A stretch of DNA of 53,639 nt from a virus (taxonomy: Duplodnaviria > Caudoviricetes), in IMG/VR virus record IMGVR_UViG_3300021225_000313, positions 1 to 53,639 of that record; one strand, given 5' to 3'. Below are positions 3,612-51,528 of the stretch, in pieces. The notes under the pieces were generated by a model. The model was given only the letters and a program-made list of their open reading frames with translations, did no database searches and was not told the DNA's origin. Each line of letters begins with the position of its first letter. The first letter of the stretch is position 1. The position numbers were made by a program, and so were the translations under genes.

Positions 3612-3622
3612 GTTAATTTAAA

Positions 3623-4297: not shown

Positions 4298-4300
4298 AAA

Positions 4301-5182: not shown

Positions 5183-5188
5183 ATTAAT

Positions 5189-9446: not shown

Positions 9447-9455
9447 ATAATAAAA

Positions 9456-10706: not shown

Positions 10707-10783
10707 TTGTAAATTGTTTATTCTAAATTTTTTTTATTAAAAATTTTTAATTATACTTATTAATATATAAAATTAAATTGAAA

Positions 10784-11896: not shown

Positions 11897-11907
11897 AATA
11901 TTATTTT

Positions 11908-12432: not shown

Positions 12433-12436
12433 TGTT

Positions 12437-12751: not shown

Positions 12752-12840
12752 AATTAATAACTTATTTATATAAATACTTTTTTTATAAGTATTTTTTTTA
12801 TTCAAAATATTTTTGTATTTTTTAATGTAAACTAAAAATC

Positions 12841-36721: not shown

Positions 36722-36798
36722 AAAATTTTTTTTTCACTTTTGACCTAATTTTTGGATTTTTAGAAAAAAATTAAAAAATTTTTTTTTCACTTTTGACC
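36710..36798 (+). repeat. perfect 36-bp direct repeat
   Basis: GAAAAAAATTAAAAAATTTTTTTTTCACTTTTGACC at 36710-36745 and 36763-36798. Confidence 0.85.
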
Positions 36799-36887
36799 AG
36801 GAAAGTCAAGTTTTCAGATTTTTTTTAAAAAAATTTCTGTTAGGGGATTGACCCCCGTCCTAAGACCTTGAAAAAACACATATATAA

Positions 36888-36968
36888 GGGGGGATACGGA
36901 GGGGGAGGGGGGTATGTTCCTTGGCAGGAGGGGGGTTAATAGGAAAGGGGGGACGTATATGTCCCCCC
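36888..36968 (+). other. G-tract cluster ending in a hairpin
   Basis: Five runs of 5-6 G; GGGGGGAC-gtatat-GTCCCCCC hairpin at 36947-36968, probable terminator of 36977-37492. Confidence 0.7.
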
Positions 36969-36976
36969 GTTATCCT

Positions 36977-37492
36977 TTACAGGATTTCGTATTTGATTCC
37001 GTTCATGGATACCTCTTTAAGGGAGTCAATCATGAAGGATTTCGGGTCATGTTTGTTTACCTGAGGTTGACGGGACGTTTGGGATTTCTTTACCTCAAAG
37101 GAAACGAAAACGTTTCTGTCAATCGGATTTCCCTCAAAGGTATATTCCGATTTGATGTTTGAGGTATCGAAGGTAAAGTATTGAAGGTAATAACGATTCA
37201 ATTTTTCATTGAATTGTACACACTTAGAAACGTGGTCACCTACCTTACATTCCTCAGATACAAAGGTACGTTCCATACCCTCTTTTTCCATACGGTTATT
37301 AACCATATCCTCATAAGACCCCCCGATAAAGTAGTTACCCTTTGAGGTCTTAAATACCTTGTCAAAGTAAGGATTTCCACCTTTGTTCATCCGTACTTTC
37401 GTTTCTGAAACGATATTAACAAAAGTAGGTTTGTTAACATTTTTCAGGATTTCGAGGATTTCTGTCTTTGATACTTTCATTACGTTACTCAT
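36977..37492 (-). CDS. early-type hypothetical protein (paralog of 48646-49218)
   Basis: 171 aa, no Ala; shares MNKxGNP and NxxEKEG motifs; own minus-strand promoter at about 37513-37544. Confidence 0.8.
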   Translation of the reverse strand: MSNVMKVSKTEILEILKNVNKPTFVNIVSETKVRMNKGGNPYFDKVFKTSKGNYFIGGSYEDMVNNRMEKEGMERTFVSEECKVGDHVSKCVQFNEKLNRYYLQYFTFDTSNIKSEYTFEGNPIDRNVFVSFEVKKSQTSRQPQVNKHDPKSFMIDSLKEVSMNGIKYEIL

Positions 37493-37728
37493 AGTGTGTT
37501 TGTTTGTGAATACAAAACTATAACCTTTATTTCAATCCACCAAATTTATTTTTAGTTTTTTTGAAATTATTTTTTGGGTATGTCTTTTTGATATTTCCAA
37601 ATTTTTGGGTCTATTTTTTTTTCAAAACTTCTTTGGCGACCCCCTCAAAAAAAGTTTGAAAATAGTTGAATTAATTTTTGGTAATATGAAATATCCATTT
37701 TATCTTTGAGTTCTAAATCACACACACC

Positions 37729-37995
37729 ATGAAAGTAAATGTTGTCTTCTCTTTCATCCACATGACGGACAAAAGTAATAATGATGTACCCGTTTGGGTT
37801 CCTCAAGGAACGATGTCCCAATCCTTTGAGATGGAAACCGATATCGAACAAATCTTGAATAACCTGAAACGGTTTAACTTTATCGTAATGAATAAGATAG
37901 GTAATGAATTGGTTGATATCAATAATACTTACGGTGACAATTTTAACCGATACGAATATATCGACCACGAAGTATTCGAATGTGTCCCCGAATAG
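37729..37995 (+). CDS. early-type hypothetical protein
   Basis: Promoter upstream; terminator GTCCCC-gaata-GGGGAC-T8 overlapping the stop; no Ala. Confidence 0.75.
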   Translation: MKVNVVFSFIHMTDKSNNDVPVWVPQGTMSQSFEMETDIEQILNNLKRFNFIVMNKIGNELVDINNTYGDNFNRYEYIDHEVFECVPE

Positions 37996-38310
37996 GGGAC
38001 TTTTTTTTATTTCCCCCGTGAATGTTCCTTGGCAGGTTTGACGTGATTAGAGACGTTTTAAGACCGTTTACCCGTGTTTGTGTGTGTTGACCTTAATTGA
38101 GGAATAAACGTTCAGGAAGGGGTACAGAATCAATCCACAGATGAACTGAAACAATATCCATTCAGGTGGGGATGAATTGACCATTCGAACGTGGATTTTA
38201 GGTGGGGGTATCCTATCAACCCCGCCAAAGAACTTTTCGAAAATAAATCACGTCTGAAATTTGGTAGTTTCATTTCTCCCGTATATCTTTGTATTCTAAA
38301 TCACACACAC

Positions 38311-38511
38311 ATGACCACACAACAATTCGTTGAGAAGTACAGAATGAGGAGAAAAGACCCAAAAGACCTGAAAAGGGAGGTGGAGATTGGAATCCTCTCA
38401 AAACTATCTGACCTTCAGATGTTTTGTGGTGAAAATGACAGAGTATTCATCAACCACATCAAAGAGTTCGTAAGTGACTACTTTGAAATAGAAGAAACCC
38501 CCTCCGAATAG
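38311..38511 (+). CDS. early-type hypothetical protein
   Basis: Start trimmed to MTTQQF after the promoter; terminator follows; no Ala. Confidence 0.7.
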   Translation: MTTQQFVEKYRMRRKDPKDLKREVEIGILSKLSDLQMFCGENDRVFINHIKEFVSDYFEIEETPSE

Positions 38512-38627
38512 GGGGTTTTTTTTGTTCCTTATCCAACCTCGCCAAAGAAATTTCTGAAAATAAATTCAAATAAAATTTGGTAGTTTCAAATGTTCTTTAT
38601 ATCTTTGAGTTCTAAATCAATCACACC

Positions 38628-38789
38628 ATGTGTAACGTCATCAACACCGTCCTTTGGATTGTAGGAATCCTCATCATGATTTGGTCCATCATGGGGTTCG
38701 TCATGTTCTACGAACAGTATCGTATCAGTGAGTACAAGAAAATTCGGAGGAAGTGGAGAGAGTTTGACGAACAAAACACCCCTGAATAA
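38628..38789 (+). CDS. 53-aa membrane protein absent from the ORF track
   Basis: MCNVINTVLWIVGILIMIWSIMGFVMFY...; flanked by promoter and terminator. Confidence 0.7.
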   Translation: MCNVINTVLWIVGILIMIWSIMGFVMFYEQYRISEYKKIRRKWREFDEQNTPE

Positions 38790-38905
38790 GGGGTTTTTTT
38801 TGTTCCTTATCCAACCTCGCCAAAGAAAATCCTTCAAAAATATTTGGTCTGAAATTTGGTAGTTTCAAATGTCTTACATATCTTTGTATTCTAAATCAAA
38901 CAAAT

Positions 38906-39145
38906 ATGACTGAAACATTCATGACATTCGGGAGTACAAAAAGTGACACTTTCAGACAGTTGAAGAGTGGTCATTGGGTGGGTGATACATGGGGAGGTAA
39001 AACCTTCACATCAGTTGAGAAATTTGAAAAAGGTTCCACGGGAGGGGAACGGTTCAGGGATATTGAGGTGAGGGAGTCCACAGAGGAAGAAAAAAAGGAG
39101 TTCACGGACATCCTAATTTTTAGGATTAACAAACCGTCCATCTAA
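38906..39145 (+). CDS. early-type hypothetical protein
   Basis: Promoter-ORF-terminator unit; no Ala. Confidence 0.7.
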   Translation: MTETFMTFGSTKSDTFRQLKSGHWVGDTWGGKTFTSVEKFEKGSTGGERFRDIEVRESTEEEKKEFTDILIFRINKPSI

Positions 39146-39269
39146 CCCCGAAAGGGGTTTTTTCTTGTCTTACACTCAACCCCGCCAAGGAAATATCACC
39201 AGATAAAGTTTGTCTGAAATTTGGTAGTTTCAAATGTCTTACATATCTTTGTATCCTAAATCAAACGAT

Positions 39270-39479
39270 ATGTTACAAGATGTTTGGACAGAAGAAGGAA
39301 TGGAGGGTGAAGAATTGGTTGTCGGACAAACCACGGGTTGTGGATGTTGTACGTACAATGTCCACGGAAAGGTGAGTGTCACAGATGAACTGAAAAACAA
39401 CATGAAGTTTATCCTGAAGTCGTGTCAGATTTTGGGTATCACCCTTGAAGAACTTAAAACAATGGTGGAAGAAAAATAA
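39270..39479 (+). CDS. early-type hypothetical protein (GCGCC amino-acid motif)
   Basis: Start trimmed to MLQDVW after the promoter; no Ala. Confidence 0.7.
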   Translation: MLQDVWTEEGMEGEELVVGQTTGCGCCTYNVHGKVSVTDELKNNMKFILKSCQILGITLEELKTMVEEK

Positions 39480-39643
39480 AACAAGATATTCGTGTGTTTT
39501 GATTTGGAGTCCTACCCGAAAGGGTGGGATTTTTTTTTGGTATTACACCCAATCCCGCCAAAGAAGTTTAACCAGAAATAGTTCGTTCGAAATTTGGTAG
39601 TTTCAAATGTCTTACATATCTTTGTATTCTAAACAAACATACT

Positions 39644-39787
39644 ATGAAAATCAAGACACACAAAGGGTACAAGAGAGATGAACAAGTAAACCAAGGGATG
39701 TACGATGGACGTTTCCGTCCCAAGGTGGTAATGGACAAAAAGAAAAAGGAAAACAAGTTCGGATGTCGGAAAAAGTGGGGGGAGTGA
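39644..39787 (+). CDS. 47-aa basic protein absent from the ORF track
   Basis: MKIKTHKG...GMYDGRFRPKVVMDKKKKE...; directly after the promoter. Confidence 0.7.
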   Translation: MKIKTHKGYKRDEQVNQGMYDGRFRPKVVMDKKKKENKFGCRKKWGE

Positions 39788-39984
39788 AATCCCTTCACTT
39801 TAATATGACACGTAAACATATTGTCGTGTCGTGATTTAGACGAGACCCCTGTCCGATGAGGATGGGGGTTCTTGTTTGTGGTAACTGACCCAACCTCGCC
39901 AAAGAAATTTCTGAAAAAAAAGATGAATTAAAATTTGGTGGATTCAAATCTATGATATATCTTTGTATCCTAAATCAATCACAT

Positions 39985-40176
39985 ATGAAGTACATTATCG
40001 TTTGTCTCCTGATGTTTGTAGTGTTCACCCCTATGTACATTTGGTACGGGTTAAAGACCATTTGGAATTGGGAGGTGGATAAAAACATTCACGAATTAAA
40101 CGGAGTTGTAAGAAGAAGGACATTCTACACAAAAAGAAAGTTGTTCCCTCAAAAACATTACCCGACTATGTATTGA
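39985..40176 (+). CDS. small membrane protein
   Basis: MKYIIVCLLMFVVFTPMYIWYGL; unit architecture. Confidence 0.7.
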   Translation: MKYIIVCLLMFVVFTPMYIWYGLKTIWNWEVDKNIHELNGVVRRRTFYTKRKLFPQKHYPTMY

Positions 40177-40310
40177 AAACTAACCCCCTGAAGAAGGGGG
40201 TTTTTTTTGTTTCACATCCAATCCCGCCAAAGAAGTTTTTTCAAATAAATCTGAAATAAATTTGGTAGATTCAAATATTCATTTTATCTTTGTATTCTAA
40301 ATCACACAAT

Positions 40311-40688
40311 ATGAAAAAGACGTATCTCCTTCAGTACAAGTTTTCAACGTCCAAGGGTATCTATACCAACGGATGGAAAATCTGTACCTTGAAAGTAAAC
40401 CTGAAAAAAGTTTCCTCATGTATGGGAGGGGGTTATGACATGAAAGGAACAAATTTGGGGAATTGGATTGAAAAAGAATTTCAGGAAGAACTGAAGACCC
40501 TCGACCCTCGAAAGTATTACGGAATGTCATATGATGAAGACGGTACGGTAATCCTCAACGGTTCGTGTGGGTTCACCTCAATGGAATCAATCCTCAACGG
40601 GTTGGGGTACAAAATCAATCAACTCCCAACCAAAGGAAGTAACAAATTCCTTGATATGTCCAACGACTTTGAAGTGACCCCCATATAA
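40311..40688 (+). CDS. early-type hypothetical protein
   Basis: GGGYDMKGT motif; unit architecture; no Ala. Confidence 0.75.
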   Translation: MKKTYLLQYKFSTSKGIYTNGWKICTLKVNLKKVSSCMGGGYDMKGTNLGNWIEKEFQEELKTLDPRKYYGMSYDEDGTVILNGSCGFTSMESILNGLGYKINQLPTKGSNKFLDMSNDFEVTPI

Positions 40689-40804
40689 GGGGGTTTTTTC
40701 TTTTTATACCCGTAACCCGCCAAAGAACTTTTTTCAAAAATAGTTTCTCCAAAGTTTGGTAGATTCAAATATTCATTTTATCTTTGTATTCTAAATCACA
40801 CACT

Positions 40805-40924
40805 ATGACTGAATATGGACCCACCTTCGACATCATTGTGACAATCGTTGAAATTGTTTTGGGGGTTGTCGGACTTTATTGTTTCTATCTAATAGACAAA
40901 GAATTGAAAAAAATATACAGATAA
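40805..40924 (+). CDS. 39-aa membrane protein absent from the ORF track
   Basis: MTEYGPTFDIIVTIVEIVLGVVGLYCFYLIDKELKKIYR, directly after the promoter. Confidence 0.6.
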   Translation: MTEYGPTFDIIVTIVEIVLGVVGLYCFYLIDKELKKIYR

Positions 40925-40953
40925 TTGAAAAATTAAAATTAAATTCATATATT

Positions 40954-41091
40954 ATGAAAAAAATAATCTTTTTGTTTTTTATTTCCTTTGTTTTTTCATC
41001 GTGTCTTACAACAATGACAAGGGTTGGGAATTGTAAATATTATTACCGACCTTCAATGAAGGATAAAAAATGGAGACATTTAAGTTATTAA
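40954..41091 (+). CDS. small putative lipoprotein
   Basis: MKKIIFLFFISFVFSSC lipobox-like signal. Confidence 0.6.
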   Translation: MKKIIFLFFISFVFSSCLTTMTRVGNCKYYYRPSMKDKKWRHLSY

Positions 41092-41092
41092 C

Positions 41093-41440
41093 ATGGATAA
41101 ATTTACATCAAGTGGTTACGTCTATGGACTTGACCAAAACGGGGATGAAACGACCCGTTTGACCCCTAATTTTGAGTCTGACAATTATGACGACCTAATC
41201 CTTCAAATAAACGAAAGTCTTGAAAATGGAACCCTAATAAAAGAAGGTACTCTTCAAAAGTTCCTTGGCGCGGTTATGTACATCGAATCGACCAAACAAG
41301 GGGAAGACGGGAAAACAAACTTCATAAGTAATTACGTAGAATTTGGAGAATTGACAGAATCCCAATCAGACATAATTTATGAACAGATTTTCAAAGAAAT
41401 GTTTGACGGTTGGGATGACCCTGCCAATGAAATACTATAA
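41093..41440 (+). CDS. early-type hypothetical protein
   Basis: Its only two Ala codons lie in or abut GCCAANGAA motif copies. Confidence 0.7.
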   Translation: MDKFTSSGYVYGLDQNGDETTRLTPNFESDNYDDLILQINESLENGTLIKEGTLQKFLGAVMYIESTKQGEDGKTNFISNYVEFGELTESQSDIIYEQIFKEMFDGWDDPANEIL

Positions 41441-41497
41441 AAATAATTCGTCCAAAATTTGGTAGTTTCAAATGTGTGATATATCTTTGTATTCTAA

Positions 41498-41887
41498 ATG
41501 AAACGACAGATGAACACTATCAAGAACATGATGGACAAAGGACAGAAACTGTTTCAGAACCTGTACGTGGAATTTCAGGGGGAAGACATTGTGTCTTTCA
41601 ATGTAATCCCAAGTGATTCATCCCTTGACCTTCAAACGGTTAAGTCAATCGTATCCGACTTGAAGGAACAAAAAATGTTTACCCTTCAGGAAGATGTCCC
41701 CCACATGGAATTAGGGGTATCGATTGAAAGAACCACACATTTCTCGAAATCCCCGTCCTATATCATTGAAACCTTTCACGTCAATTTGGAAGACATGGAC
41801 GATGAATATGGATTCAAAAGAAATTTGAACGTTCCGAAACCCCTTAATGAGTTCATCGGGGTGGACGAACCCGTTACGACTGTGTGA
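41498..41887 (+). CDS. early-type hypothetical protein (paralog of 48108-48506)
   Basis: Shared DVPxMExGV, IETFHxNL and DDxxGFxRNxNxPKPL; start may be 41510. Confidence 0.8.
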   Translation: MKRQMNTIKNMMDKGQKLFQNLYVEFQGEDIVSFNVIPSDSSLDLQTVKSIVSDLKEQKMFTLQEDVPHMELGVSIERTTHFSKSPSYIIETFHVNLEDMDDEYGFKRNLNVPKPLNEFIGVDEPVTTV

Positions 41888-42035
41888 TTATGTTTGTAAA
41901 ACCCTGATGTTTCTACATCGGGGTTTTTTCTTTCCCTTACCCAACCTCGCCAAAGAAATTTGGTAAAATAAATCTTGTTCAAAATTTGGTGGATTGGTAT
42001 AACTAACATATCTTTGTATTCTAAACAACAAACAA

Positions 42036-42380
42036 ATGACACAGTACGAAATTTGTATTACCGTTCAGTCAATTCTGAAACGTGAATTTGATGTAAAAGA
42101 AACGGTTGAACTTCTGAAAAAGTCCAAAGGTGTTTTCACCTATTTCTCATGGGGTGTGTCCAAAATGATTAACGTAAATAACAAGGGATTGTTATTGAAA
42201 GTGTCAGGACATCATCACAAAGGGTGGGTGTTGGTTACCCTCAATTATTCGGATTATTATGACGTACACATCATATCCAACAAAGGAGAGGTGAAGGACG
42301 AATTTACGGATATCTTTTTCACTGATTTGTGTGAAACGATTGATAACCGTATCGAAAGAATACCGATGTATAGAGATTGA
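42036..42380 (+). CDS. early-type hypothetical protein
   Basis: Unit architecture; no Ala. Confidence 0.75.
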   Translation: MTQYEICITVQSILKREFDVKETVELLKKSKGVFTYFSWGVSKMINVNNKGLLLKVSGHHHKGWVLVTLNYSDYYDVHIISNKGEVKDEFTDIFFTDLCETIDNRIERIPMYRD

Positions 42381-42523
42381 TTCATGGTGTGATTTAGATG
42401 GTGACCCCGACCCAAAAGGTTGGGGTTCTTCATTTGGTGTCACATCTCGCCAAAGAAATTTCCCAAAATATTGGGTTGTACTTCTCAATATTCCGTTTTA
42501 TCTTGTTGAAAATTAAATATCTT

Positions 42524-42652
42524 ATGACAAAGGAAATGATTTTAACAAAGATTAACCAAGAAAAAAAGATTGTAAGACGGTTGTGGAATTTATTTATATG
42601 TGTTTCCGTGTTTGTCTTGTTTTTCTTTTTATCTTTAATTATATTATCATAG
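42524..42652 (+). CDS. small membrane protein
   Basis: Start trimmed to MTKEMIL; C-terminal TM helix; degenerate promoter. Confidence 0.55.
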   Translation: MTKEMILTKINQEKKIVRRLWNLFICVSVFVLFFFLSLIILS

Positions 42653-42799
42653 GGTGTTAAGTTTGGAATCCCCTGGTGTGTCTACATCGGGGGAATTTTT
42701 TTGTCATACCCCGCCAAGGAAATTCCATGAAAAATAAATGAATTAAAATTTGGTAGTTTCAAATGTCTTACATATCTTTGTATTCTAAATCAATAACAC

Positions 42800-43000
42800 A
42801 TGATTGAAGTTTCAAGAAAGTCAGACCTCACGGGAAAGATGAACGTCATGACACTCAACACCACCAAGGAACAACTGAATCGGTATTACAACGGTGAAGG
42901 TCTTGTTCAGACTTTATTCCCACATCTCACTGTTGAGGAAAGGGAGTTCCTCAAGACGGGTATCACACCAAAGGAATGGAAAGATATGTTTGGGGAGTAA
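42800..43000 (+). CDS. small phage protein
   Basis: FPHLTVEEREFLKTGITPKEW motif; unit architecture. Confidence 0.75.
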   Translation: MIEVSRKSDLTGKMNVMTLNTTKEQLNRYYNGEGLVQTLFPHLTVEEREFLKTGITPKEWKDMFGE

Positions 43001-43117
43001 CAATCCCCTTTTTTTTTACCTTGTCATAACCTGCCAAAGAAATTTCTGAAAATAAATTGAAATTAAATTTGGTAGTATCAAATAATTGTTTTATTTTTGT
43101 GTTCTAAATCACACACC

Positions 43118-43357
43118 ATGACAACAATTAATGAAATCTTGTTAAACTTTAAAGAAGTAAAAATTCAAGAAGATGTTCACGAAATAGAGTTAAAGGGTTC
43201 ATTTTTATGGAACCACCGACATAACTATGGTGGATTTTTCAACTATGGAAATGAAAGAGGTTTATCTATTGATAATATTTGGATAACTTCTGAAACAGGG
43301 GATTGTCTATATGACCATATAACTATTAATGGATTTAAAGTTTACAAACAAAAGTAA
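43118..43357 (+). CDS. early-type hypothetical protein
   Basis: Start trimmed to MTTINE. Confidence 0.7.
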   Translation: MTTINEILLNFKEVKIQEDVHEIELKGSFLWNHRHNYGGFFNYGNERGLSIDNIWITSETGDCLYDHITINGFKVYKQK

Positions 43358-43429
43358 ATACAAAATATTCCATTCTTAATTTGGTAGTATCAAATAATTG
43401 TTTTATTTTTGTGTTCTAAATCAAATGAC

Positions 43430-43636
43430 ATGGAACTAAACACAAAGGAAAAAGTTAAAGAACACGTTGAATTTGAATTTGAACAAATGTTGGTTAAAGT
43501 GTACGAATCCAACAATGTTACAACGGGGGACATTTTACCCCATCAACATCTTCAATGGGAAGATTTGATTGAGAAAACGACAAACCTGTTCATGGAATTG
43601 TTGAACCAAAATAAAGAAATCGAAAAGGAGGTTTAA
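43430..43636 (+). CDS. early-type hypothetical protein
   Basis: Start trimmed to MELNTK; own promoter without the upstream motif. Confidence 0.7.
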   Translation: MELNTKEKVKEHVEFEFEQMLVKVYESNNVTTGDILPHQHLQWEDLIEKTTNLFMELLNQNKEIEKEV

Positions 43637-43743
43637 CCCTCCTTTTTTTATGACCTGCCAAAGAAATTTCTGAAAATAAATTGAAATTAAATTTGGTGGT
43701 TTCAAATGTTCTTTATATCTTTGAGTTCTAAATCAATCACACC

Positions 43744-44019
43744 ATGGGTATCAGAATCAGGAATCATTGGATTATCCCGACCGTCCACAACTTTGACGTA
43801 AAGTACAATGACTGTTCTTTGTCCGTTAAAGTGACCGTGGACGAAACAAAGGAAAGTTTCGAAACGTCTCTGAACTATGTTTTGGAGGGTTCTTTGACGG
43901 AAACCGAAATTGACGAGGTTCTTTCATATGTCCGAAAGAAAATCATGGATAACGAAAACCTTTTACCCACCTTCATTCCGATTGAAACCGTGGATGTGGA
44001 TGGATGTGAAGTGTTCTAA
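43744..44019 (+). CDS. early-type hypothetical protein
   Basis: Unit architecture; no Ala. Confidence 0.7.
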   Translation: MGIRIRNHWIIPTVHNFDVKYNDCSLSVKVTVDETKESFETSLNYVLEGSLTETEIDEVLSYVRKKIMDNENLLPTFIPIETVDVDGCEVF

Positions 44020-44150
44020 AAGAAGGGGAGAAATCCCCTTTTTTTCTTTTTTGTCCGTACCCTGCCAACGAACATTCCCAAAATAAATTCCTCCAAAATT
44101 TGGTGGAATGAAAATTAGGTTATATCTTTGTATCCTAAATCAAACATACC

Positions 44151-44660
44151 ATGATTATCACATCCGATTTTTCGAAGATTATTTCCACACCCGAACTGAA
44201 AGACAGTGTACGTGAAAAAATTTCCGAAGGTGAAGAGGTATTGAGTTTTTCATATACCGATTACGGTGGTGACTTTTTTGATAAAGTAGGAATCGAATAT
44301 TTTATCAAACATTATCCTGATAATATTGTATGGGAACATACAATCTATTCGGGAAAGAATGGAATCATTTTCGGTGACGTGGTGAAAGAATTTAAGGAAG
44401 AATATGAATCCTATCCTTTGGGATTTGATGACATTGAATCCTTTTATTACGAAATGACCAATGAAGTTGAACATGAAGACTTTACACGGTTCATTGAAGA
44501 CATAAAAAGTAAATATGTTGTCTCCGATGAATGTATGAATTGGTTAATCGATAATAAGAGTGGATATTATTCCATCACGACACAAGGGTTGGATTTTTGT
44601 TACTCTGACCTGATTAAAGAATTGGAATCGGAAGGATTGGTAACAAAAATTGAAGATTGA
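44151..44660 (+). CDS. early-type hypothetical protein
   Basis: 169 aa, no Ala; GAAA-loop terminator follows. Confidence 0.8.
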   Translation: MIITSDFSKIISTPELKDSVREKISEGEEVLSFSYTDYGGDFFDKVGIEYFIKHYPDNIVWEHTIYSGKNGIIFGDVVKEFKEEYESYPLGFDDIESFYYEMTNEVEHEDFTRFIEDIKSKYVVSDECMNWLIDNKSGYYSITTQGLDFCYSDLIKELESEGLVTKIED

Positions 44661-44798
44661 TAGACAGACCCGACCGAAAGGTTGGGTTTTTTTTTGTCTT
44701 ACATCCAATCCCGCCAAAGAAAATTGTGAAAATAAATTCAATTAAAATTTGGTAGTTTCAAATGTCTTACATACCTTTGTTTTCTAAATCAAACGAAC

Positions 44799-45002
44799 AT
44801 GATTATCGAACTTAATTCAGTAGGAAGTGTTGTGGATGACCAAACGTTGATGGTGTATCCCAAAAGACAAGATGGTACTATTGAGTACGGTGTGAACGGT
44901 GTACCCCTGATGGAAACCTGTGATGAATGGGTTGAATCCTTGGACGGGGATGACATCTTTACCGTAATGAAGTTGATTGAATCGGAAACAAAAAAGGGTT
45001 AA
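44799..45002 (+). CDS. early-type hypothetical protein
   Basis: Unit architecture; no Ala. Confidence 0.7.
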   Translation: MIIELNSVGSVVDDQTLMVYPKRQDGTIEYGVNGVPLMETCDEWVESLDGDDIFTVMKLIESETKKG

Positions 45003-45120
45003 CCCCCTTTTTTTTGTGTCTTACATAAACCTGCCAACGAACATTCCCAAAATAAATCCCGTATAATTTTTGGTATATTCAAATATTCGTATTACCTTTG
45101 AGTTCTAAATCACACACATC

Positions 45121-45384
45121 ATGGGTAACGTTCAAGTTTGTATCCTTAATAATGAGTCCGTTAATGACGTTGAACTCGAAAAATTCGTGATTGATGTCAA
45201 ATATAAGGACATTCACGACATTGTAAATAAGGTGGATGAATATTGTGATGAATATGAATTGGTGGATACATACGTCTATATTATTTCCGATGACTTTACA
45301 CGGGACGAAATAAATTACTTGGAAGATTATTGGGTATTCGTACACAGAACGGATGAAGAAGTTCGTTCAAAAATGTTTGCATAA
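45121..45384 (+). CDS. acidic early-type hypothetical protein
   Basis: Promoter upstream; single Ala as the last residue. Confidence 0.7.
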   Translation: MGNVQVCILNNESVNDVELEKFVIDVKYKDIHDIVNKVDEYCDEYELVDTYVYIISDDFTRDEINYLEDYWVFVHRTDEEVRSKMFA

Positions 45385-45439
45385 TATTTTTGTAGTCTAA
45401 AAAATCTATTATATTTTTACATTCAAAATCCACAACACC

Positions 45440-45946
45440 ATGTTACAGTCTATTGAAGAATTTATGACCCTTCATTCCAAACTGATTCAAAAGATGTTTC
45501 AAGACCTTGGAGAAATCAGACCTTTTTTGGTTCTGATGGGGGATAACGAAAAAGATTGTCAGGTAAAACCTGTTATCATTCCGACCATGTTTTTTGAAAC
45601 CGAAATCGGGAAAACATTTGTAAAATCTGTCATACTGAAAAAAGAAATTGACGAATTGAAAACTGATGGGTATGAATTGAGGTGTGTTTCATTCAGTTCA
45701 GAATGTTGGATGAAAAAAATCGTTGTGAACAAAGAAGGGATAAAAGTTGAAAAAGACATTGAAGTTGTTGTGGTGTCATACGAAATGAAAGGAGATTCGT
45801 TATTTCAAGTTTACGAAATCAAACGTAACATGAATATAACTGAAAACGGGTTGGAAGAAAAACCGACATTGGAATTGTGTGAAACAATATCGAATAACAA
45901 AAATGTTCACTTTGAAGGGATGATGACAAAACTATTCCAAGAGTAA
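45440..45946 (+). CDS. early-type hypothetical protein
   Basis: 168 aa, no Ala; weak similarity to 46087-46518. Confidence 0.75.
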   Translation: MLQSIEEFMTLHSKLIQKMFQDLGEIRPFLVLMGDNEKDCQVKPVIIPTMFFETEIGKTFVKSVILKKEIDELKTDGYELRCVSFSSECWMKKIVVNKEGIKVEKDIEVVVVSYEMKGDSLFQVYEIKRNMNITENGLEEKPTLELCETISNNKNVHFEGMMTKLFQE

Positions 45947-46086
45947 TACAAGAGGGGGGAGAAATCCTCCCTTTTTTTTGTCCACGTATTACCTGCCAAA
46001 GAATATTCGTGTCATATACACATCTCAAAATTTGGTAGAATCAATATATTGTAATACCTTTGTACCCACAAATAAAATAAAATTAA

Positions 46087-46518
46087 ATGTATCAAGTTCT
46101 GAAAAAAGTTGTTGAGAAACAAGTCATTCAAGAGTATCGAAAGAATGGAGTGGTGAAGAACAAGGTAATTCTCTTGGCACTTGATGAAGACGATACGATA
46201 TCCTTCTGTCATAAAGATTTACCAAAAAATGATGGAAGTAATGACGATGAATTTTTCGATAAGTTTGTGAAGACACAAAAGATTATCGACAAACTTGTTG
46301 TGAAGGTCTCAGAGGACGGTTATCGGGTTAAAACGATGGTGGTGGTAGATTATCATGAATCGGACACAGACGACTATATAAGTCTCTCATTTAAGTCAGG
46401 GAAGGGGTTCCAAAATGTGGTGAATATAAATTACTACATCCAAAAAACTCCCACGATGATATCGGATGATGGTGTGATGGTGGTCAGTCAACCAACATTA
46501 ATTGAAGTGTCAGAATAA
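46087..46518 (+). CDS. early-type hypothetical protein
   Basis: 143 aa; sole Ala lies in a TTGGCA variant motif. Confidence 0.75.
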   Translation: MYQVLKKVVEKQVIQEYRKNGVVKNKVILLALDEDDTISFCHKDLPKNDGSNDDEFFDKFVKTQKIIDKLVVKVSEDGYRVKTMVVVDYHESDTDDYISLSFKSGKGFQNVVNINYYIQKTPTMISDDGVMVVSQPTLIEVSE

Positions 46519-46657
46519 ATATAAATTCCCCAATAAAACGGGGAATTTTTTTTAAATATATTCACGGTGCCAAAGAATATATTAATAAAATAAGTACAAA
46601 AATATTTGGTAGTCTCAAATATCCATTATATCTTTGTATTCACAAAAAACAAAAACT

Positions 46658-46858
46658 ATGTTGGTAAAAGATGTAATCAAAGAACTGAAAAATGTTAGTC
46701 ACATTTATTCTTATGTGAAGTTCAACAAGAATCACGGTGAGTACGTGAGGGTGATGAAAATCGAACTCCTCAACGAAATCCTGAAGAACATGGATGAAAA
46801 CTCAAAAATCAAATGTGAGATTGATACCGAACAAGGGGTAGCCTACATCGGTGGATAA
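46658..46858 (+). CDS. early-type hypothetical protein
   Basis: Start trimmed to MLVKDV. Confidence 0.7.
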   Translation: MLVKDVIKELKNVSHIYSYVKFNKNHGEYVRVMKIELLNEILKNMDENSKIKCEIDTEQGVAYIGG

Positions 46859-46995
46859 GATAAATTCCCCTGACCGAAAGGTCGGGGGTTTTTATTTCCC
46901 CTCCAACCTGCCAAAGAAGATTAAAAAAATAAATCTGAAATAAATTTGGTAGTATCAAATGTCTGTTTTATCTTTGTATCCTAAATCAAAACAAA

Positions 46996-47517
46996 ATGAG
47001 TAGAATTAAATTAAAAAACATCAAGTTTTCGGAGTGGAATTCTGAAGAGACAAATTGTTTTCAGGCAGACATCTACTTCGACAATAAAAAGGTAGGGTTT
47101 TGTTCCAACGATGGACATGGTGGTAGTACATATTGTCAATGGATTGGTGTGGAAACCAAAGATAAGTTCATAGAGATGGAAGAATATTGTAAGACACTAC
47201 CTGACATTGTGTACAAGAATGAGGGACGTGAGGACTTCATAATGAAGAGTGATTTGGAGAACGTAGTGGATACGTTATTTGAAGAGTGGTTGGAACAAAA
47301 GAATAAGAAGAAGATGGAGAAGTACTTTGAGAAAGGTGTATGTTTCGGTACAAAAAACCAATACAGAATCAGTTCGTTCAAAAGTGGAGGTAAATTAATT
47401 ACAATTAGTCAGTTATGTGAGAGTATAGTTGGTCGGACTATGTTAGAGAAACATTGTGAGAGTTTGAAAAAACAAGGACACATCATCCTCAATACCAATC
47501 TTCCATTCAAAGTGTAA
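46996..47517 (+). CDS. early-type hypothetical protein
   Basis: SEETNCFQAD...NDGHGG motif; one Ala in 173 aa. Confidence 0.8.
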   Translation: MSRIKLKNIKFSEWNSEETNCFQADIYFDNKKVGFCSNDGHGGSTYCQWIGVETKDKFIEMEEYCKTLPDIVYKNEGREDFIMKSDLENVVDTLFEEWLEQKNKKKMEKYFEKGVCFGTKNQYRISSFKSGGKLITISQLCESIVGRTMLEKHCESLKKQGHIILNTNLPFKV

Positions 47518-47640
47518 GAAAAGGGGAACCACCCCTTTTTTTGTTACACAACCTGCCAACGAACATTATTCAAAAATACTTGGTCTAATATTTGGTAGTA
47601 TCAAATATCTGTTTTATCTTTGTATCCTAAATCAAAACAT

Positions 47641-48000
47641 ATGACAGACATTTTCAAATCAGTGAACGAAAGTATTTTCAAAGGGGTAAAAGGAATATCG
47701 TGGTACGATAAGGACGGTATCATGAATTTGGATGAAACAAGGTATGTTCGTTTTCTCCTTGACGATATCGGAACAAAAGACTACTATGTAGGTTATTGGG
47801 TTGAAGTCTACAATAGAAACAATGGATTGATATCCAAAAAGTTTTTCAGGTTTCAATATCACATGGAATTTATTCATCAACGTGATAATTATTATCACAT
47901 TTGGTATTATCGGGGTAATTTAGAATGGTACATATCAAGACCAAAGGATACCAAACAATATGTTAAAATCCTTATGGACTACATAGAAAAAATAAAATAA
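47641..48000 (+). CDS. early-type hypothetical protein
   Basis: Start trimmed to MTDIFK; no Ala. Confidence 0.75.
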   Translation: MTDIFKSVNESIFKGVKGISWYDKDGIMNLDETRYVRFLLDDIGTKDYYVGYWVEVYNRNNGLISKKFFRFQYHMEFIHQRDNYYHIWYYRGNLEWYISRPKDTKQYVKILMDYIEKIK

Positions 48001-48107
48001 GGGGGAAATCCCCTTTTTTTTATATCCGACCTGCCAAAGAAGATTTAAAAAATAAATTTGGTAAATTCAAATATACATTATATCTTTGTGTCCTAAATCA
48101 ATCGGAA

Positions 48108-48506
48108 ATGAATGTACTGTCAAAAATGTGGTTAGGGTTCAGACTTCCCCATCGTGACCTTGTTCTGACCTTCAAAGGTAAAGAGTTGGTAAATTATCGT
48201 GTGAACGAAAATGGACGGGAAGATTACACTCCCGAATTGGTTCGGGATTTGATTCAGGAACTGATTAAACAAGGTATGATTACCTTCTTTGATGACGTTC
48301 CGAACATGGAAGTGGGTGTACCCATCCATACAATCGGAATTGTCGATGAAGACGACCCCAAAGATGAAATTATGTACATCGAAACGTTCCATCGGAATTT
48401 GGATAACTTGGATGATGATTTTGGTTTTGAAAGGAATGTGAACATCCCCAAACCACTCCATGAGTTTTTGGGATTCCCGAAACCCATCAAAGATTCGGAC
48501 TACTAA
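48108..48506 (+). CDS. early-type hypothetical protein (paralog of 41498-41887)
   Basis: Shared C-terminal motifs; no Ala. Confidence 0.8.
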   Translation: MNVLSKMWLGFRLPHRDLVLTFKGKELVNYRVNENGREDYTPELVRDLIQELIKQGMITFFDDVPNMEVGVPIHTIGIVDEDDPKDEIMYIETFHRNLDNLDDDFGFERNVNIPKPLHEFLGFPKPIKDSDY

Positions 48507-48645
48507 AAGGAACGACCCGACCGAAAGGTTGGGTTTTTTCTTTTTCCCCTACATCGCGCCAAAGAAATTCTCAAAAATAAAATTGAATAAAATTTGGTGG
48601 ATTCAAATATGTCACATATCTTTGTATCCTAAATCAATAACGATT

Positions 48646-49218
48646 ATGGTTACAGATTATCAAGTACAAGAGTCCGTGAATGTTAAAGAAGTAACGACCA
48701 CGGAACTGACCAACATTCTCCTTCAGGTAGGGGTAACGGTTGACCTCAAGTCCGACTTTGTGAATGTAGTGATGGAAACCGAACCTTCCATGAATAAGAC
48801 GGGTAACCCGTTCATCGGGAAGGTGAAAAAACTTTCCTCACGGAACTACAAACTCCTCATGGACTACGAAAAAAGGGTACGTTCCAATGAAAAGAAAGAA
48901 GGGTTGACCCCCGACTTTGTTACAGAGAAACCCAAAGGTAAACATCACATTTCTCCCCTCGTTCTGTTGGACGATAAGACGGAAAGTGTCCACTACCTCA
49001 ATCTTGAGTATTTTGTGGAAGTGAAACCGATTGTGTCCTATTCCTTCAATGACCTTCCCATGACCAAGGAAGATGAGGGATTGATGAAACAATTCTTTGT
49101 AAAGAAGTATCAGAGTCAAAAACAGGAACAGGACAGGAAGGTGGAAGTTATCACACCGAAAATATCGAACATCAAACAGATGTCGATGGGTGGGGTGAAG
49201 TACATCGTCAAAAACTAA
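48646..49218 (+). CDS. early-type hypothetical protein (paralog of 36977-37492)
   Basis: Start trimmed to MVTDYQ; FVNxVxET, MNKTGNP and C-terminal SMxGxKY; no Ala in 190 aa. Confidence 0.8.
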   Translation: MVTDYQVQESVNVKEVTTTELTNILLQVGVTVDLKSDFVNVVMETEPSMNKTGNPFIGKVKKLSSRNYKLLMDYEKRVRSNEKKEGLTPDFVTEKPKGKHHISPLVLLDDKTESVHYLNLEYFVEVKPIVSYSFNDLPMTKEDEGLMKQFFVKKYQSQKQEQDRKVEVITPKISNIKQMSMGGVKYIVKN

Positions 49219-49287
49219 AACAAAGGGGGGTAATTCCCCCTTTTTTTATTATATTTGATTATTCGTTGGCAGTAATACAAAAACAAT

Positions 49288-49632
49288 ATGACCACATTTT
49301 TCTTAATCATCATCATCCTCACCCCATTAATATTCCTTGGCGCGATATGGGATAAATACACAAAACAAAAGGAGGAATTGATGTTCCTACAAAACATAAA
49401 TGAAAGTAATATCGAAATAATCAAACATCAATCCGATTTGATACGTATAAAGGACGAAATGTTAGTCCTCAATACGGAAACGATTAATAGGATGGATAGT
49501 ATGATACAGTCTCAGGAAGACATGATTAAGACCCAAAAGGAAGTAATACAAGAACAGAACGGTATCATTGATTCAAACATAAACCATATCAAGGTACTCG
49601 AAAATATTGTCAAGGTAAACGAATTCAGATGA
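49288..49632 (+). CDS. membrane-anchored coiled-coil protein
   Basis: N-terminal TM helix and 7-residue periodicity; sole Ala abuts a reverse motif copy. Confidence 0.7.
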   Translation: MTTFFLIIIILTPLIFLGAIWDKYTKQKEELMFLQNINESNIEIIKHQSDLIRIKDEMLVLNTETINRMDSMIQSQEDMIKTQKEVIQEQNGIIDSNINHIKVLENIVKVNEFR

Positions 49633-49737
49633 GTTCGTAGTACACGGACATGCCAAAGAAGTTTCCAAAAATAAATCTGATTAAAATTTGGTAGTTTCAA
49701 AAATACATTATATCTTTGTATTCTAAATCAAATTTAT

Positions 49738-50301
49738 ATGGGAGAAGTAATTACAGAAAAGGTTGTCGGTAACCACATTATTCGTACCTTTTATGACGAA
49801 TGTCCTTACAATCCCCGTGAGAACGACAATTTGGGAACAATGGTGTGTTTCCATAGACGTTATTCATTGGGTGATAAACATGACTACGATTCCAATGACT
49901 ACAAAGGTTGGGATGAAATGGAGAAAGCCATTATCAAAAATGAGAATGTCGGGGTTATCCTTCCCTTGTATCTTTATGACCACGGAGGAATAACAATTTC
50001 CACAAGTCCTTTCTCATGTCCATGGGATTCAGGACAAATCGGATTCATATTCATTTCCAAAAAGAAAATGTTGGAAGAATATGGAGGAAAGATTGTAACC
50101 AAAAAACTGAAAGAAAGGGTTGAGGGTTACTTGAAAAATGAAGTGGAGGAATATGACCAATACCTTCGGGGTGAAGTGTACGGTGTGAGGGTATTTGAAA
50201 AGGAATTGGATGAGGACGGGGATGATGTTGAAGTACATTCATGTTGGGGATTCTACTCGGAGGAGGATGCCATTGAGGACGGAATGTGTTATGTAAAATA
50301 G
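49738..50301 (+). CDS. phage hypothetical protein
   Basis: DNLGTMVCFH, LYLYDHGG and CPWDSGQIG; unit architecture. Confidence 0.8.
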   Translation: MGEVITEKVVGNHIIRTFYDECPYNPRENDNLGTMVCFHRRYSLGDKHDYDSNDYKGWDEMEKAIIKNENVGVILPLYLYDHGGITISTSPFSCPWDSGQIGFIFISKKKMLEEYGGKIVTKKLKERVEGYLKNEVEEYDQYLRGEVYGVRVFEKELDEDGDDVEVHSCWGFYSEEDAIEDGMCYVK

Positions 50302-50554
50302 TTTGTGTTTTGTTTGTTATACCCCTATCCGAAAAGGATGGGGGTTTTTTGTTGTTAACCCACAATGTTGTTTGGCATCGTATTACGTACATTTGTGTTC
50401 TGTGTAATTTGTTGTGGTTATTGATGTACTATCCCCTGGTGTTTCAACACTGGGGGTTTTGTATTACTGCCAAAGAAATTACAGAAAATAAATTCAAATA
50501 AAATTTGGTAGATTCAAATATTCGTTTTATCTTTGTATTCTAAACATAAACACA

Positions 50555-50791
50555 ATGGATAAAAAAACAATTAATAAAGTTTGGAATAAGTATCAAAAGA
50601 ATGAGTCAAATAACGACCATTCGGAGAATGTCTTATTACTCGCCAAAACATTTGGTACTGATGAGGATGTTGCTGAAGCAGAAGACATCCAACATAAACA
50701 TGATTCCATTGGATATATGACAACAGACCTTTTGAAAAGGAGGGATTTTTTACATAATAAATTTTATCCTATTCTTGTCCGTTTCAGATAA
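50555..50791 (+). CDS. hypothetical protein spanning the right edge of the GpC-poor zone
   Basis: Last TAnnTTTG promoter; ordinary Ala codons resume at about 50672. Confidence 0.7.
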   Translation: MDKKTINKVWNKYQKNESNNDHSENVLLLAKTFGTDEDVAEAEDIQHKHDSIGYMTTDLLKRRDFLHNKFYPILVRFR

Positions 50792-50823
50792 TTGTATTAC
50801 CTTTATATTCTAAAACAAACGAA

Positions 50824-51012
50824 ATGAAAAAGACGGTAACAATTTATGAGTTGTATGAAAAAGAGTTCAATCAGCCAACATTTATTGGGTTTCTGCAAGG
50901 TCATAGAACGCCTGACAGATTTCATGGGGTGACATTGAGCAAAAAAACCGCTGAACAGTGGGTGAAAAAAAGTGAAATGAATTATTATCGTATAAATAAA
51001 AGTGTAGAATAA
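50824..51012 (+). CDS. hypothetical protein
   Basis: TACCTTTA box at 50798. Confidence 0.65.
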   Translation: MKKTVTIYELYEKEFNQPTFIGFLQGHRTPDRFHGVTLSKKTAEQWVKKSEMNYYRINKSVE

Positions 51013-51064
51013 ATTTGGTAGATTGATATAAACGTATTACCTTTATATCCTAAAGATAAACAAA

Positions 51065-51229
51065 ATGAAGTATTTAGTAAGTTGGATAATTTGGGATAGA
51101 ACTAACCCTGAATGGAGACCTATTTATAAATTTCAAAAGTGTAGCACATTAATCAAAGCAAATAGAATGAAAACTAATCTATTAAAACAAACTTCTTTTA
51201 TAGAGGTAACAATAAGTGAAATAGTATGA
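51065..51229 (+). CDS. 54-aa protein absent from the ORF track
   Basis: MKYLVSWIIWDR...; promoter 51014-51045; ATGA overlap with the next gene. Confidence 0.6.
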   Translation: MKYLVSWIIWDRTNPEWRPIYKFQKCSTLIKANRMKTNLLKQTSFIEVTISEIV

Positions 51230-51528
51230 ACACACCTGTAAGTCCAAAATTAGATAAACTACTTCTTGATATGGGTATTGATATGCCTGTAAGCCCAACC
51301 ATTGCAGATGTTGTGATGTGGTTGTATGAGAAATATGGAGTTTGGATTGATGTTGATATCGAAGGAGAAGGCTTTGATATATTCTATTTTTTGGCATATA
51401 GAAACCATGAAGAGAGGGTTAAAGAGTATATGAAAAAATTAAATGACGAAAATTATCATACAAATTACAAAACGCCAAAAGAAGCATATGAAGCTGCAAT
51501 TGAATACACTCTAAATAATTTGATATGA
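51226..51528 (+). CDS. hypothetical protein
   Basis: PTIADVVMWL...TPKEAYEAAIEY. Confidence 0.7.
   Translation: MNTPVSPKLDKLLLDMGIDMPVSPTIADVVMWLYEKYGVWIDVDIEGEGFDIFYFLAYRNHEERVKEYMKKLNDENYHTNYKTPKEAYEAAIEYTLNNLI

Follow-up and report, generated by a model that had tools for sequence, protein, structure and literature searches.

We show here that a block of genes in an uncultured giant freshwater phage of the class Caudoviricetes is kept almost free of the dinucleotide 5'-GC-3', and that the loss of alanine from the encoded proteins is a by-product of this exclusion on the nucleic acid and not of a dislike of alanine. The block lies in virus record IMGVR_UViG_3300021225_000313, which was analysed over its full length of 53,639 bases (the window). 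The proteins are without alanine because the block is kept free of GC and every alanine codon (GCN) contains this word; GC denotes the dinucleotide throughout, and genes are named by their lower coordinate. A first-pass annotation of the same DNA had described an essentially alanine-free set of about 30 proteins, and this description holds. The 31 genes curated within positions 36,977-50,301, each started at the ATG behind its promoter cassette and encoding 39-190 amino acids (aa), use 9 alanines in 3,161 codons (0.28%); elsewhere in the window the figure is 2.58%. No alanine at all is found in 24 of these genes. If the block genes used alanine at the rate of the rest of the window, so few would be met with P(X<=9) = 8e-25. 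The open reading frames (ORFs) of 171, 169, 168 and 190 aa reported as alanine-free are so indeed (36977-37492 on the minus strand, 44151-44660, 45440-45946 and 48646-49218). A mechanical ORF list gives a somewhat higher count, 12 alanines in 3,335 aa, since it includes a spurious minus-strand ORF and longer starts.

Between positions 36,921 and 50,477 there are 41 GC where 431 are expected, and the lowest of 1000 mononucleotide shuffles of this stretch still held 378. Density is 1-5 per kb against 26-40 expected, while CG, GG and other dinucleotides are ordinary. The ratio of observed to expected GC is 0.09 in the block and 0.62 outside, the edges are sharp, and the word TGCA is found once inside and 120 times outside. 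Almost all surviving copies belong to a single element: 36 of the 41 are in or abut one box, (C)CnGCCAA[A/G]GAA or its reverse complement, and five lie elsewhere, which leaves an observed/expected ratio of 0.012 outside the box. Among 134 mostly unrelated viral loci gathered by pattern searches (L001-L134), one true relative aside, the lowest ratio in any 2 kb was 0.36. The G+C content is 33-40% in the block (about 36.9-50.5 kb) and 21-36%, mostly 22-31%, in the rest of the window. A milder bias of the same kind exists outside the block, with 57 G|C codon junctions against 119 expected and AGC and GGC rare.

The exclusion is blind to what the word encodes. The 31 ORFs (9,576 bases) contain 11 GC where some 300 are expected, with depletion in all three frames. 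TGC is never used and TGT 46 times, AGC never and AGT 39 times, CGC is missing, GGC makes up 2 of 184 glycine codons, and junctions of the type G|C number 0 against 87 expected. AGC/GCT occurs twice, pooled over both strands, and all flanking contexts of GC are missing except those of the box. Non-coding DNA of the block has 30 GC instead of 105, 29 of them in the box, and even the terminator stems, made of G-runs and C-runs, are without GC. Since GC is equally missing in codons of the type NGC, at codon junctions and in non-coding DNA, selection against alanine as such is ruled out. Such selection, for example for independence from tRNA-Ala or alanyl-tRNA synthetase during infection, has the bare figure of 0.28% on its side and is in our view refuted, with practically no probability left to it. 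In addition, four of the nine surviving alanine codons lie within the GCCAA/TTGGC box, at exactly the places where the first-pass annotation had seen alanines coincide with a DNA motif: 41270 in ttccttggcgcg, 41423 in cctgccaatgaa, 46177 in ctcttggca and 49342 again in ttccttggcgcg. The other five (45379, 46841, 47065, 49927 and 50269) are outside the box.

That the ORFs are not real genes, or that the contig is an artefact, is an explanation to which we assign a next to negligible probability. In its favour, a scan of block proteins against Pfam (20) and PHROGs (10) returned phrog_6186 as the only trusted match and left 29 of the 30 larger ORFs without any match beyond weak ones. However, 19 DNA runs, taken from 11 studies of freshwater and other waters, contain near-identical DNA, each ORF is preceded by a promoter of its own at constant spacing, and three of the genes belong to families with 5,889 database matches (gene 49738), 2,190 profile matches (gene 36977) and 30 loci (gene 42036). 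The gene 36977 protein is moreover predicted by AlphaFold2 (AF2) with a mean local confidence (pLDDT) of 90.4. Sub-threshold Pfam matches to DUF2680, HI0933_like and RepB-RCR_reg were not trusted. When 7.9 kb of the block were compared with GenBank phages at the nucleotide level, a single chance match of 61 bases came up. In one freshwater RNA-Seq run, contigs cover 18 of 30 bins of 36.5-51.5 kb, some across intergenic spacers; DNA carry-over is possible in this library, so that it is no proof of transcription, and the bins left uncovered are no evidence against it.

The three families show what was replaced, for they occur in two states, either GC-free and alanine-free or normal. Gene 49738 matches the phrog_6186 profile (E 4.7e-29, residues 4-182), and the best 120 of its database matches (58-95% identity) have a median of 0.5% alanine. 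With an alignment of the family 80 loci were fetched, many on contigs of 100-335 kb, yielding 64 distinct homologs. Twenty of these have at most 3 GC (12-18 expected) and 0-3 alanines, 43 have at least 5 GC and 2-20 alanines at similar G+C, and one (L157) is intermediate. Comparing 15 GC-free with 34 normal members, with proteins outside 170-240 aa or of intermediate GC left out, alanine falls from 3.3% to 0.4%; the richest alanine column reaches 50% in normal members, and at alanine-rich columns V is the commonest residue of the GC-free members, followed by G, C, P and I. In the family of genes 36977 and 48646, a word search gave 108 matches with 13 alanines in 18,433 residues, 101 of them without any, and all 13 distinct tblastn homologs in related loci (26-65% identity) have 0-1 GC where 3.9-16 are expected. 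A profile search retrieved 2,190 proteins, and 148 representatives are bimodal, 56 having no alanine and most others 3-23. Here 52 alanine-free members were compared with 76 normal ones (within 150-215 aa, members with 2-3 alanines omitted); the top alanine column stands at 57% in the normal set, and S, V, P and T are found there in the alanine-free set. The gene 42036 family, with 9 GC-free and 11 normal members compared, has its top alanine column at 45%. The paralogs 36977 and 48646 form a phage-only family with a confident predicted fold that matches uncharacterised viral models only: the family had no match in GenBank phages, the model had none in the PDB at E <= 0.001, its BFVD matches are all uncharacterised proteins, and Atlas gave only unnamed viral clusters, below 0.9.

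A strictly conserved alanine column was found in none of the three families with enough homologs. Alanine is replaced where it is merely common, and it is a preference that is overridden and not an invariant residue. The first-pass statement that the DNA constraint overrides protein conservation thus stands for the nucleic-acid cause, given the depletion in all codon phases, at junctions and in non-coding DNA, but not for the override of conserved positions; tabulation of alanine columns against normal homologs, run for the three families, revealed substitutions at alanine-rich columns, none of which is strictly conserved. The same annotation had held that equally alanine-poor homologs elsewhere would refute it. 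Near homologs are indeed alanine-poor, but they reside in the same GC-free blocks of related phages, and remoter homologs have normal alanine. Where it had suspected replacement at individual motifs, single homologs of normal GC do carry alanine: LAQLAFPDLNADDRE (L187) corresponds to LVQTLFPHLTVEERE in the window, DMKGTALGAW (L209) to DMKGTNLGNW and DGACGF (L158) to NGSCGF. A word search for homologs of gene 40311, which holds the latter two motifs, returned one near-identical match, and its alanine columns rest on the two loci L158 and L209.

Several results argue furthermore that the GC ban is held by purifying selection, and that it is old, because the families have diverged to about 26% identity without gaining GC. 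None of the 40 population variants listed, out of 705, creates a GC, with 4.7 expected (11.7% of random substitutions). A mutational decay can be imagined, in which the C of GC is hypermutable, by GpC methylation and deamination or by a GC-specific deaminase acting on transcribed DNA, so that GC turns into GT/AC and selection saves the box only. AC/GT is slightly higher in the block than outside it (1.06 and 0.91 in the window, 1.12 and 1.00 in the related genome G002), and valine and threonine are among the residues gained. Nevertheless, we regard such decay as very improbable. CpG decay in vertebrates reaches about 0.2 observed/expected, and the 0.012 outside the box is far below this. The main excess is in GG/CC (1.51) and not in the decay products, at least 30 box copies keep their GC, the families are bimodal and not graded in alanine use, and the block has sharp edges.

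The block reads as a module of about 31 one-gene units, each laid out as a predicted intrinsic terminator, a GCCAAAGAA box, a putative Bacteroidota sigma-A-type promoter (-33 TTTGG, -7 TAnnTTTG), a short leader and a small ORF (Table 1). The order before almost every gene is hairpin and T-run, box, TTTGG, TAnnTTTG and ATG, and most plus-strand boxes have a G-run/C-run hairpin with T-run terminator just in front of them. From the start of the box to the -33 TTTGG there are mostly 35-36 nt, the -7 box follows 24 nt further on (18 of 25 cassettes) and the ATG ~27 nt beyond, which puts the box at about -72 to -64. A promoter follows 25 of the 31 box copies; the other six are without. An identical 12-mer, TTCCTTGGCGCG, is found at 41261-41272 and 49333-49344 in the same frame (F-L-G-A) of two ORFs that look unrelated by eye, neither copy being followed by a promoter, which suggests that the DNA box, rather than the peptide, is kept. 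A sigma-54 reading of the motif TTGGCA was dropped, TTGC being absent at the -12 distance (by eye), and so was the idea that the box is an inverted copy of the 'TTTGGCAG' -33 element of a later promoter class, TTTGGCAG being present in one of the three promoters right of the block. A study on Flavobacterium gives TAnnTTTG as the sigma-A -7 box (PMC9723704), and therefore the host is probably a member of the Bacteroidota. Scanning genome contigs for a host with family A4 gave one match of 28% identity in an unrelated actinobacterial metagenome-assembled genome, which is uninformative.

Table 1. Position of the GC-free block, its box copies and genes in the window, and of C5-cytosine methyltransferase (PF00145) genes in related records (record name before the coordinates; MFE, minimum free energy).
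Feature	Position	Strand	Content	Remark
GC-free block ('desert')	36921..50477	.	alanine-free genes	
Box, plus-strand copies	38224..50477	+	GCCAA[A/G/C/T]GAA, 25 copies	24 of 25 followed by promoter at fixed spacing
Box starts, part 1	38224, 38541, 38819, 39184, 39557, 39898, 40226, 40719, 41423, 41949, 42449, 42713	+		
Box starts, part 2	43033, 43657, 44064, 44713, 45033, 45995, 46569, 46910, 47555, 48033, 48558, 49652, 50469	+		
Box copy	36917..36925	-		left block edge, among C-runs and G-runs
Box copy	37629..37637	-		upstream of promoter of minus-strand gene 36977-37492
Box copy	38025..38033	-		right after terminator of gene 37762-37995
Reverse box	41261..41272	-	TTCCTTGGCGCG	within ORF 41093-41440 (encodes FLGA); centroid fold pairs it with forward box 41423
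Degenerate reverse box	46171..46179	-	CTCTTGGCA	within ORF 46087-46518 (encodes LLAL)
Reverse box	49262..49270	-	TTCGTTGGC	between genes 48646-49218 and 49288-49632; pairs with forward box 49652 (MFE and centroid folds)
Reverse box	49333..49344	-	TTCCTTGGCGCG	within ORF 49288-49632 (encodes FLGA)
Gene	36977..37492	-	171 aa, 0 Ala	paralog of 48646-49218; family with alanine-free and normal members; AF2 pLDDT 90.4
Gene	37762..37995	+	77 aa, 0 Ala	
Gene	38311..38511	+	66 aa, 0 Ala	
Gene	38628..38789	+	53 aa, 0 Ala	
Gene	38906..39145	+	79 aa, 0 Ala	
Gene	39234..39479	+	81 aa, 0 Ala	
Gene	39644..39787	+	47 aa, 0 Ala	
Gene	39985..40176	+	63 aa, 0 Ala	
Gene	40311..40688	+	125 aa, 0 Ala	DMKGTNLG, NGSCG; normal-GC homologs L158, L209 with Ala at motifs
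Gene	40805..40924	+	39 aa, 0 Ala	
Gene	40954..41091	+	45 aa, 0 Ala	L136 homolog has 2 Ala
Gene	41093..41440	+	115 aa, 2 Ala	both Ala in box copies
Gene	41510..41887	+	125 aa, 0 Ala	looks like paralog of 48108-48506, by eye only
Gene	42036..42380	+	114 aa, 0 Ala	SWGVSK, GHHHKG; family with GC-free and normal members
Gene	42524..42652	+	42 aa, 0 Ala	box without canonical promoter after it
Gene	42800..43000	+	66 aa, 0 Ala	VQTLFPHLTVEERE; L187 homolog has Ala at 3 aligned places
Gene	43118..43357	+	79 aa, 0 Ala	
Gene	43430..43636	+	68 aa, 0 Ala	
Gene	43744..44019	+	91 aa, 0 Ala	
Gene	44151..44660	+	169 aa, 0 Ala	
Gene	44799..45002	+	67 aa, 0 Ala	
Gene	45121..45384	+	87 aa, 1 Ala	last codon, outside box
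Gene	45440..45946	+	168 aa, 0 Ala	
Gene	46087..46518	+	143 aa, 1 Ala	in degenerate box
Gene	46658..46858	+	66 aa, 1 Ala	outside box
Gene	46996..47517	+	173 aa, 1 Ala	outside box; L136 homolog has 7 Ala
Gene	47641..48000	+	119 aa, 0 Ala	
Gene	48108..48506	+	132 aa, 0 Ala	
Gene	48646..49218	+	190 aa, 0 Ala	paralog of 36977-37492
Gene	49288..49632	+	114 aa, 1 Ala	in reverse box
Gene	49738..50301	+	187 aa, 2 Ala	outside box; phrog_6186 family, GC-free and normal members
PF00145 gene	G002:169125-170021			
PF00145 gene	G004:233826-234719			
PF00145 gene	G005:109583-110452			directly at edge of GC-free block
PF00145 gene	G007:215411-215854			
PF00145 gene	G010:156652-157548			

Gene 50555-50791 has a full box and promoter cassette (50469-50791), yet contains 3 GC and 3 alanines; therefore promoter class and GC ban are not exactly coincident at the right edge. 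From about 50.6 kb rightward genes contain GC and alanine again, and the promoters there (51012, 51565 and 52820) are of another type, AAATTTGG[T/C]A...ATAAAC[G/A]T[A/-]TTATACCTTTA[C/T]A, with a -7 element ending in TTTA and without an upstream GCCAAAGAA box. At the left edge, 36722-36976 is an unusual stretch rich in G-runs and C-runs (ggggggatacggagggggagggggg ... ggggggacgtatatgtcccccc) with a single box copy, which may be a bidirectional terminator or boundary element. Contigs of other samples skip or reorder whole cassettes (40182>44668, 43109>46938, 46990>50485 and 47635>40201, joints within window positions 38207-51475), with break points in the repeated promoter cassettes. These joints are either strain-to-strain cassette shuffling or assembly jumps at repeats. 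It seems to be through the repeats that cassettes are gained, lost and reshuffled. Further away, the region 1287-13866 encodes sugar- and methyl-transfer proteins (HtrL_YibB plus methyltransferase, a GlcNAc-type glycosyltransferase) and a GMP-reductase/IMPDH-like protein, and the proteins of 27302-28693 and 31910-32878 have peptidoglycan-binding domains.

The same kind of GC-free block is carried by related ~300-kb phage contigs (genomes of about 290-335 kb). In G002 (286,785 bases) there is a single block, at about 138-152 kb, with the GC-free ORFs grouped at 140.9-154.5 kb. G004 (310,542 bases, complete, with terminal repeats) has no more than a small GC-free cluster, which occupies about 258-263 kb and is 48-52 kb away from the nearer end; over these two whole records GC is at 0.55-0.56 of expectation. 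The surviving GCs of the relatives' blocks form inverted pairs, for instance TTGTTTGGCA...TGCCAAACAA and TTAGTGGGGCAA...TTGCCCCACTAA; throughout the clade the box retains its GC core, and its flanks differ between phages. Another relative, L001 (part of a 79-kb record, estimated 24% complete), shows the same cassette, tandem box arrays and patchy GC-free stretches. It was the sole true relative among 16 loci with an exact 19-mer of the -33 region in viral contigs, and a looser box and promoter pattern gave chance matches, with L001 the only one to have several among the matches listed. At 484-773 and 3016-3116 of L001, upstream of a gene, there are tandem ~46-bp repeats (7 and 3 copies), each with one GCCAA[A/G]GAAYATTCAGA box, an arrangement that looks like a multi-site operator. 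C5-cytosine methyltransferase genes (PF00145, about 300-330 aa) were found in 5 of the 9 related records searched. Phages with normal-GC homologs of gene 49738 (L160, L184, L188, L194, L197 and others) have the opposite bias, with CpG at 0.30 and GpC at 1.09 of expectation, and presumably come from another kind of hosts.

As the agent behind the ban we favour a factor that recognises GC in DNA, and under which the first-acting genes must work, over the avoidance of an RNA-cutting enzyme, and hold it with a confidence a little short of an even chance. The factor would be likeliest a restriction-like nuclease, either one encoded by the host or the one with which the phage itself degrades host DNA. 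GC would form the core of its recognition, and any GC in early-gene DNA would be selected against; one GC per cassette would survive as part of a needed promoter-linked element, perhaps shielded by its binder, a shielding that we assume. Alanine would then be replaced by whatever GC-free codon fits the site, mainly V, S, G, T, P and C. DNA as the target is supported by several observations. Sequence between predicted transcripts is purged as well: the promoter spacers, from the end of the box to about the start of transcription, have 0 GC against 19 expected (24 cassettes, 1,489 bases, predicted transcript ends), the stretches from T-run to box have 1 against 10.4, and three larger non-genic zones have 4, all in boxes, against 26. 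Furthermore, each of the 13 GC-free blocks examined is short of 4-bp palindromes without GC (mean z -1.5 to -3.8), compared with about +0.1 to +0.2 for non-palindromic 4-mers. In G002 the counts inside the block are 5 of 23 expected for ACGT, 7 of 34 for CATG, 10 of 43 for TCGA and 0 of 11 for CTAG, and outside it 313/373, 453/775, 411/537 and 272/362, a depletion that is 3-5 fold stronger inside. Separately from this, neither GATC (about 140 expected) nor CCGG (about 27 expected) occurs anywhere in the window, and CTAG is absent from the block and found 7 times outside it against 34 expected (Markov). This is restriction-site avoidance of the ordinary kind, which extends over the genome and adds to the GC ban; the relative G002 keeps GATC and avoids ACGT, CATG and TCGA in its block.

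Several points weigh against a DNA-acting factor. A nuclease reading GC only would also cut at the 36 box-linked and 5 stray GCs, and one cut kills. To our knowledge, no bacterial DNA enzyme has plain GC specificity, and specificity for two letters is more usual for RNA-cutting enzymes. The cluster of G004 is not terminal, which leaves a T5-like first-entering end unsupported there, and the promoter cassettes are copies of one another, so that the spacer counts are not independent. Other findings directly suit an RNA-level avoidance, which we rate as possible but on the whole unlikely: early transcripts would have to survive an endoribonuclease that cuts single-stranded RNA at GC, and the word would be tolerated only where it is untranscribed or paired. 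A toxin or abortive-infection RNase of the host would be a candidate for this enzyme, as would an RNase with which the phage itself shuts off the host. Consistent with an RNA-level avoidance, 24 of the 25 plus-strand boxes are placed behind a terminator and ahead of the promoter that follows, and the transcribed boxes at 41423 and 49652 have a complementary reverse box upstream in their own unit, with which they pair in predicted folds. In relatives the surviving GCs sit in both arms of strong hairpins (-14 to -30 kcal/mol, z -3.2 to -7.8, 0-1 of 200 shuffles as good) in 6 of 7 elements folded, the seventh (L143) being not significant. Relatives' blocks are gene-wise mosaics interrupted by GC-holding genes, which fits a unit of transcript better than a unit of DNA, and in the ORFs the word is depleted in every frame. 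The known effects of CpG/ZAP, of UpA/RNase L and of mRNAs without the targets of MazF (ACA) or MqsR (GCU) are likewise RNA-level effects. However, an RNA-cutting enzyme would not account for the lack of GC in the spacers and, boxes aside, in the non-genic zones, the added palindrome avoidance of these blocks is a sign of a factor that recognises double-stranded DNA, the window's terminator stems avoid GC although they would be double-stranded, and the RNA pairing at distances of 150-390 nt is only predicted. Since GC is self-complementary, the sequence does not tell the strand.

A rather improbable third explanation is modification. The virion DNA would be marked at GC, for example C5-methylated or hypermodified, and the early genes, read by host RNA polymerase from marked parental DNA, would have to be free of the mark; the single GC of the box would be marked on purpose, so that parental DNA is distinguished from replicated DNA or the early promoters are timed. 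The PF00145 genes, one of them beside the block of G005, the kept GC core of the box with its differing flanks, and the low genome-wide GC are in line with it. On the other hand, four of the nine records are without a methylase, G003, G008 and G009 (93-100% complete) and G006 (92%), and at least G003 and G006 are still GC-depleted; the methylases carry no assigned target, and 5-methylcytosine is not known to block bacterial RNA polymerase. Returning to the DNA-acting factor and its RNA-level counterpart together, we tentatively propose, with the likelihood well below even, that Bacteroidota or their giant phages have an undescribed factor that reads bare GpC, be it on DNA or on RNA, and so would be for bacteria what ZAP is for CpG; this is a factor which a clade of ~300-kb phages would have answered with a GC-less early module and GC reserved for one box per gene. 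If this is true, natural protein families have long been functional on a 19-letter amino-acid alphabet. The block is a natural experiment in protein evolution, with folded families (one modelled at pLDDT 90) at about 26% identity essentially without alanine, a residue that is among the commonest, and normal-alanine sisters as control, and it shows to what extent a nucleic-acid constraint can dictate proteome composition. The pattern points to a two-letter-specific agent, for which the candidates are a nuclease or RNase that serves freshwater Bacteroidota in defence, an enzyme by which the phage shuts off its host, and a DNA mark directed to GC. A GC-free block with one GC box per gene is also a signature usable to find first-acting genes, probably for anti-defence and takeover, in uncultured giant phages.

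A literature search, judged from titles and the beginnings of abstracts, did not turn up any account of either a GC-dinucleotide desert or phage proteins free of alanine, and several known systems share part of the pattern. As in restriction-site avoidance, short words are counter-selected on both strands and codon choice is shaped, and the block also avoids GC-less 4-bp palindromes; in contrast, it avoids a dinucleotide in all 16 flanking contexts and not a complete site of 4-8 bp, and it does so nearly absolutely, yet in one block only and with 36 GCs kept in a box. Two phage studies offer a precedent for avoidance limited to one region, with which our DNA reading is in keeping: EcoRI sites and CRISPR targets count in T5 only if they lie in the first-step-transfer region (10.1101/866236), and Type I motifs count in Autographiviridae only if they lie in the leading region, which is injected first (PMC12455610). 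Similar to the early regions described there, the block is a compact cluster of small, presumably early genes with host-type promoters (31 genes, 13.5 kb), and targets are tolerated elsewhere but not inside. Unlike the T5 region as portrayed there, the G004 cluster is not at a genome end, and the window and 8 of the 9 related records are without defined ends; moreover, the words avoided in those accounts are ordinary restriction or CRISPR targets and not a dinucleotide. Vertebrate RNA viruses suppress CpG, sensed by ZAP, and UpA, sensed by RNase L, at the RNA level, genome-wide and partially. There, too, a dinucleotide is removed whatever its codon phase, and codon and amino-acid use are visibly affected; here, however, it is GpC, in a double-stranded DNA phage, regional and nearly complete. 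Transcripts without ACA or GCU escape the mRNA interferases MazF and MqsR by lacking the recognition word in every frame, whereas in the block DNA predicted to be non-transcribed is purged too. The host-takeover module of SPO1 and the PeSL cassettes of T4 consist of dozens of small, mostly uncharacterised genes, each with a repeated early promoter and stem-loop, and the many small genes of the block are flanked in the same way; we know of no dinucleotide ban or amino-acid loss described for them. Chlorella viruses have the GpC-specific methylase M.CviPI and frequent cutters such as CviJI (RGCY), so that viral DNA enzymes with GC or near-GC specificity exist, but these belong to eukaryotic algal viruses, and the phage methylases of the relatives are not linked to GpC. 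Thus, the block is set apart from known systems by the combination of a bare dinucleotide, an almost complete ban, its confinement to one module, the reservation of GC for a box and the removal of an amino acid from about 30 proteins and whole sub-families.

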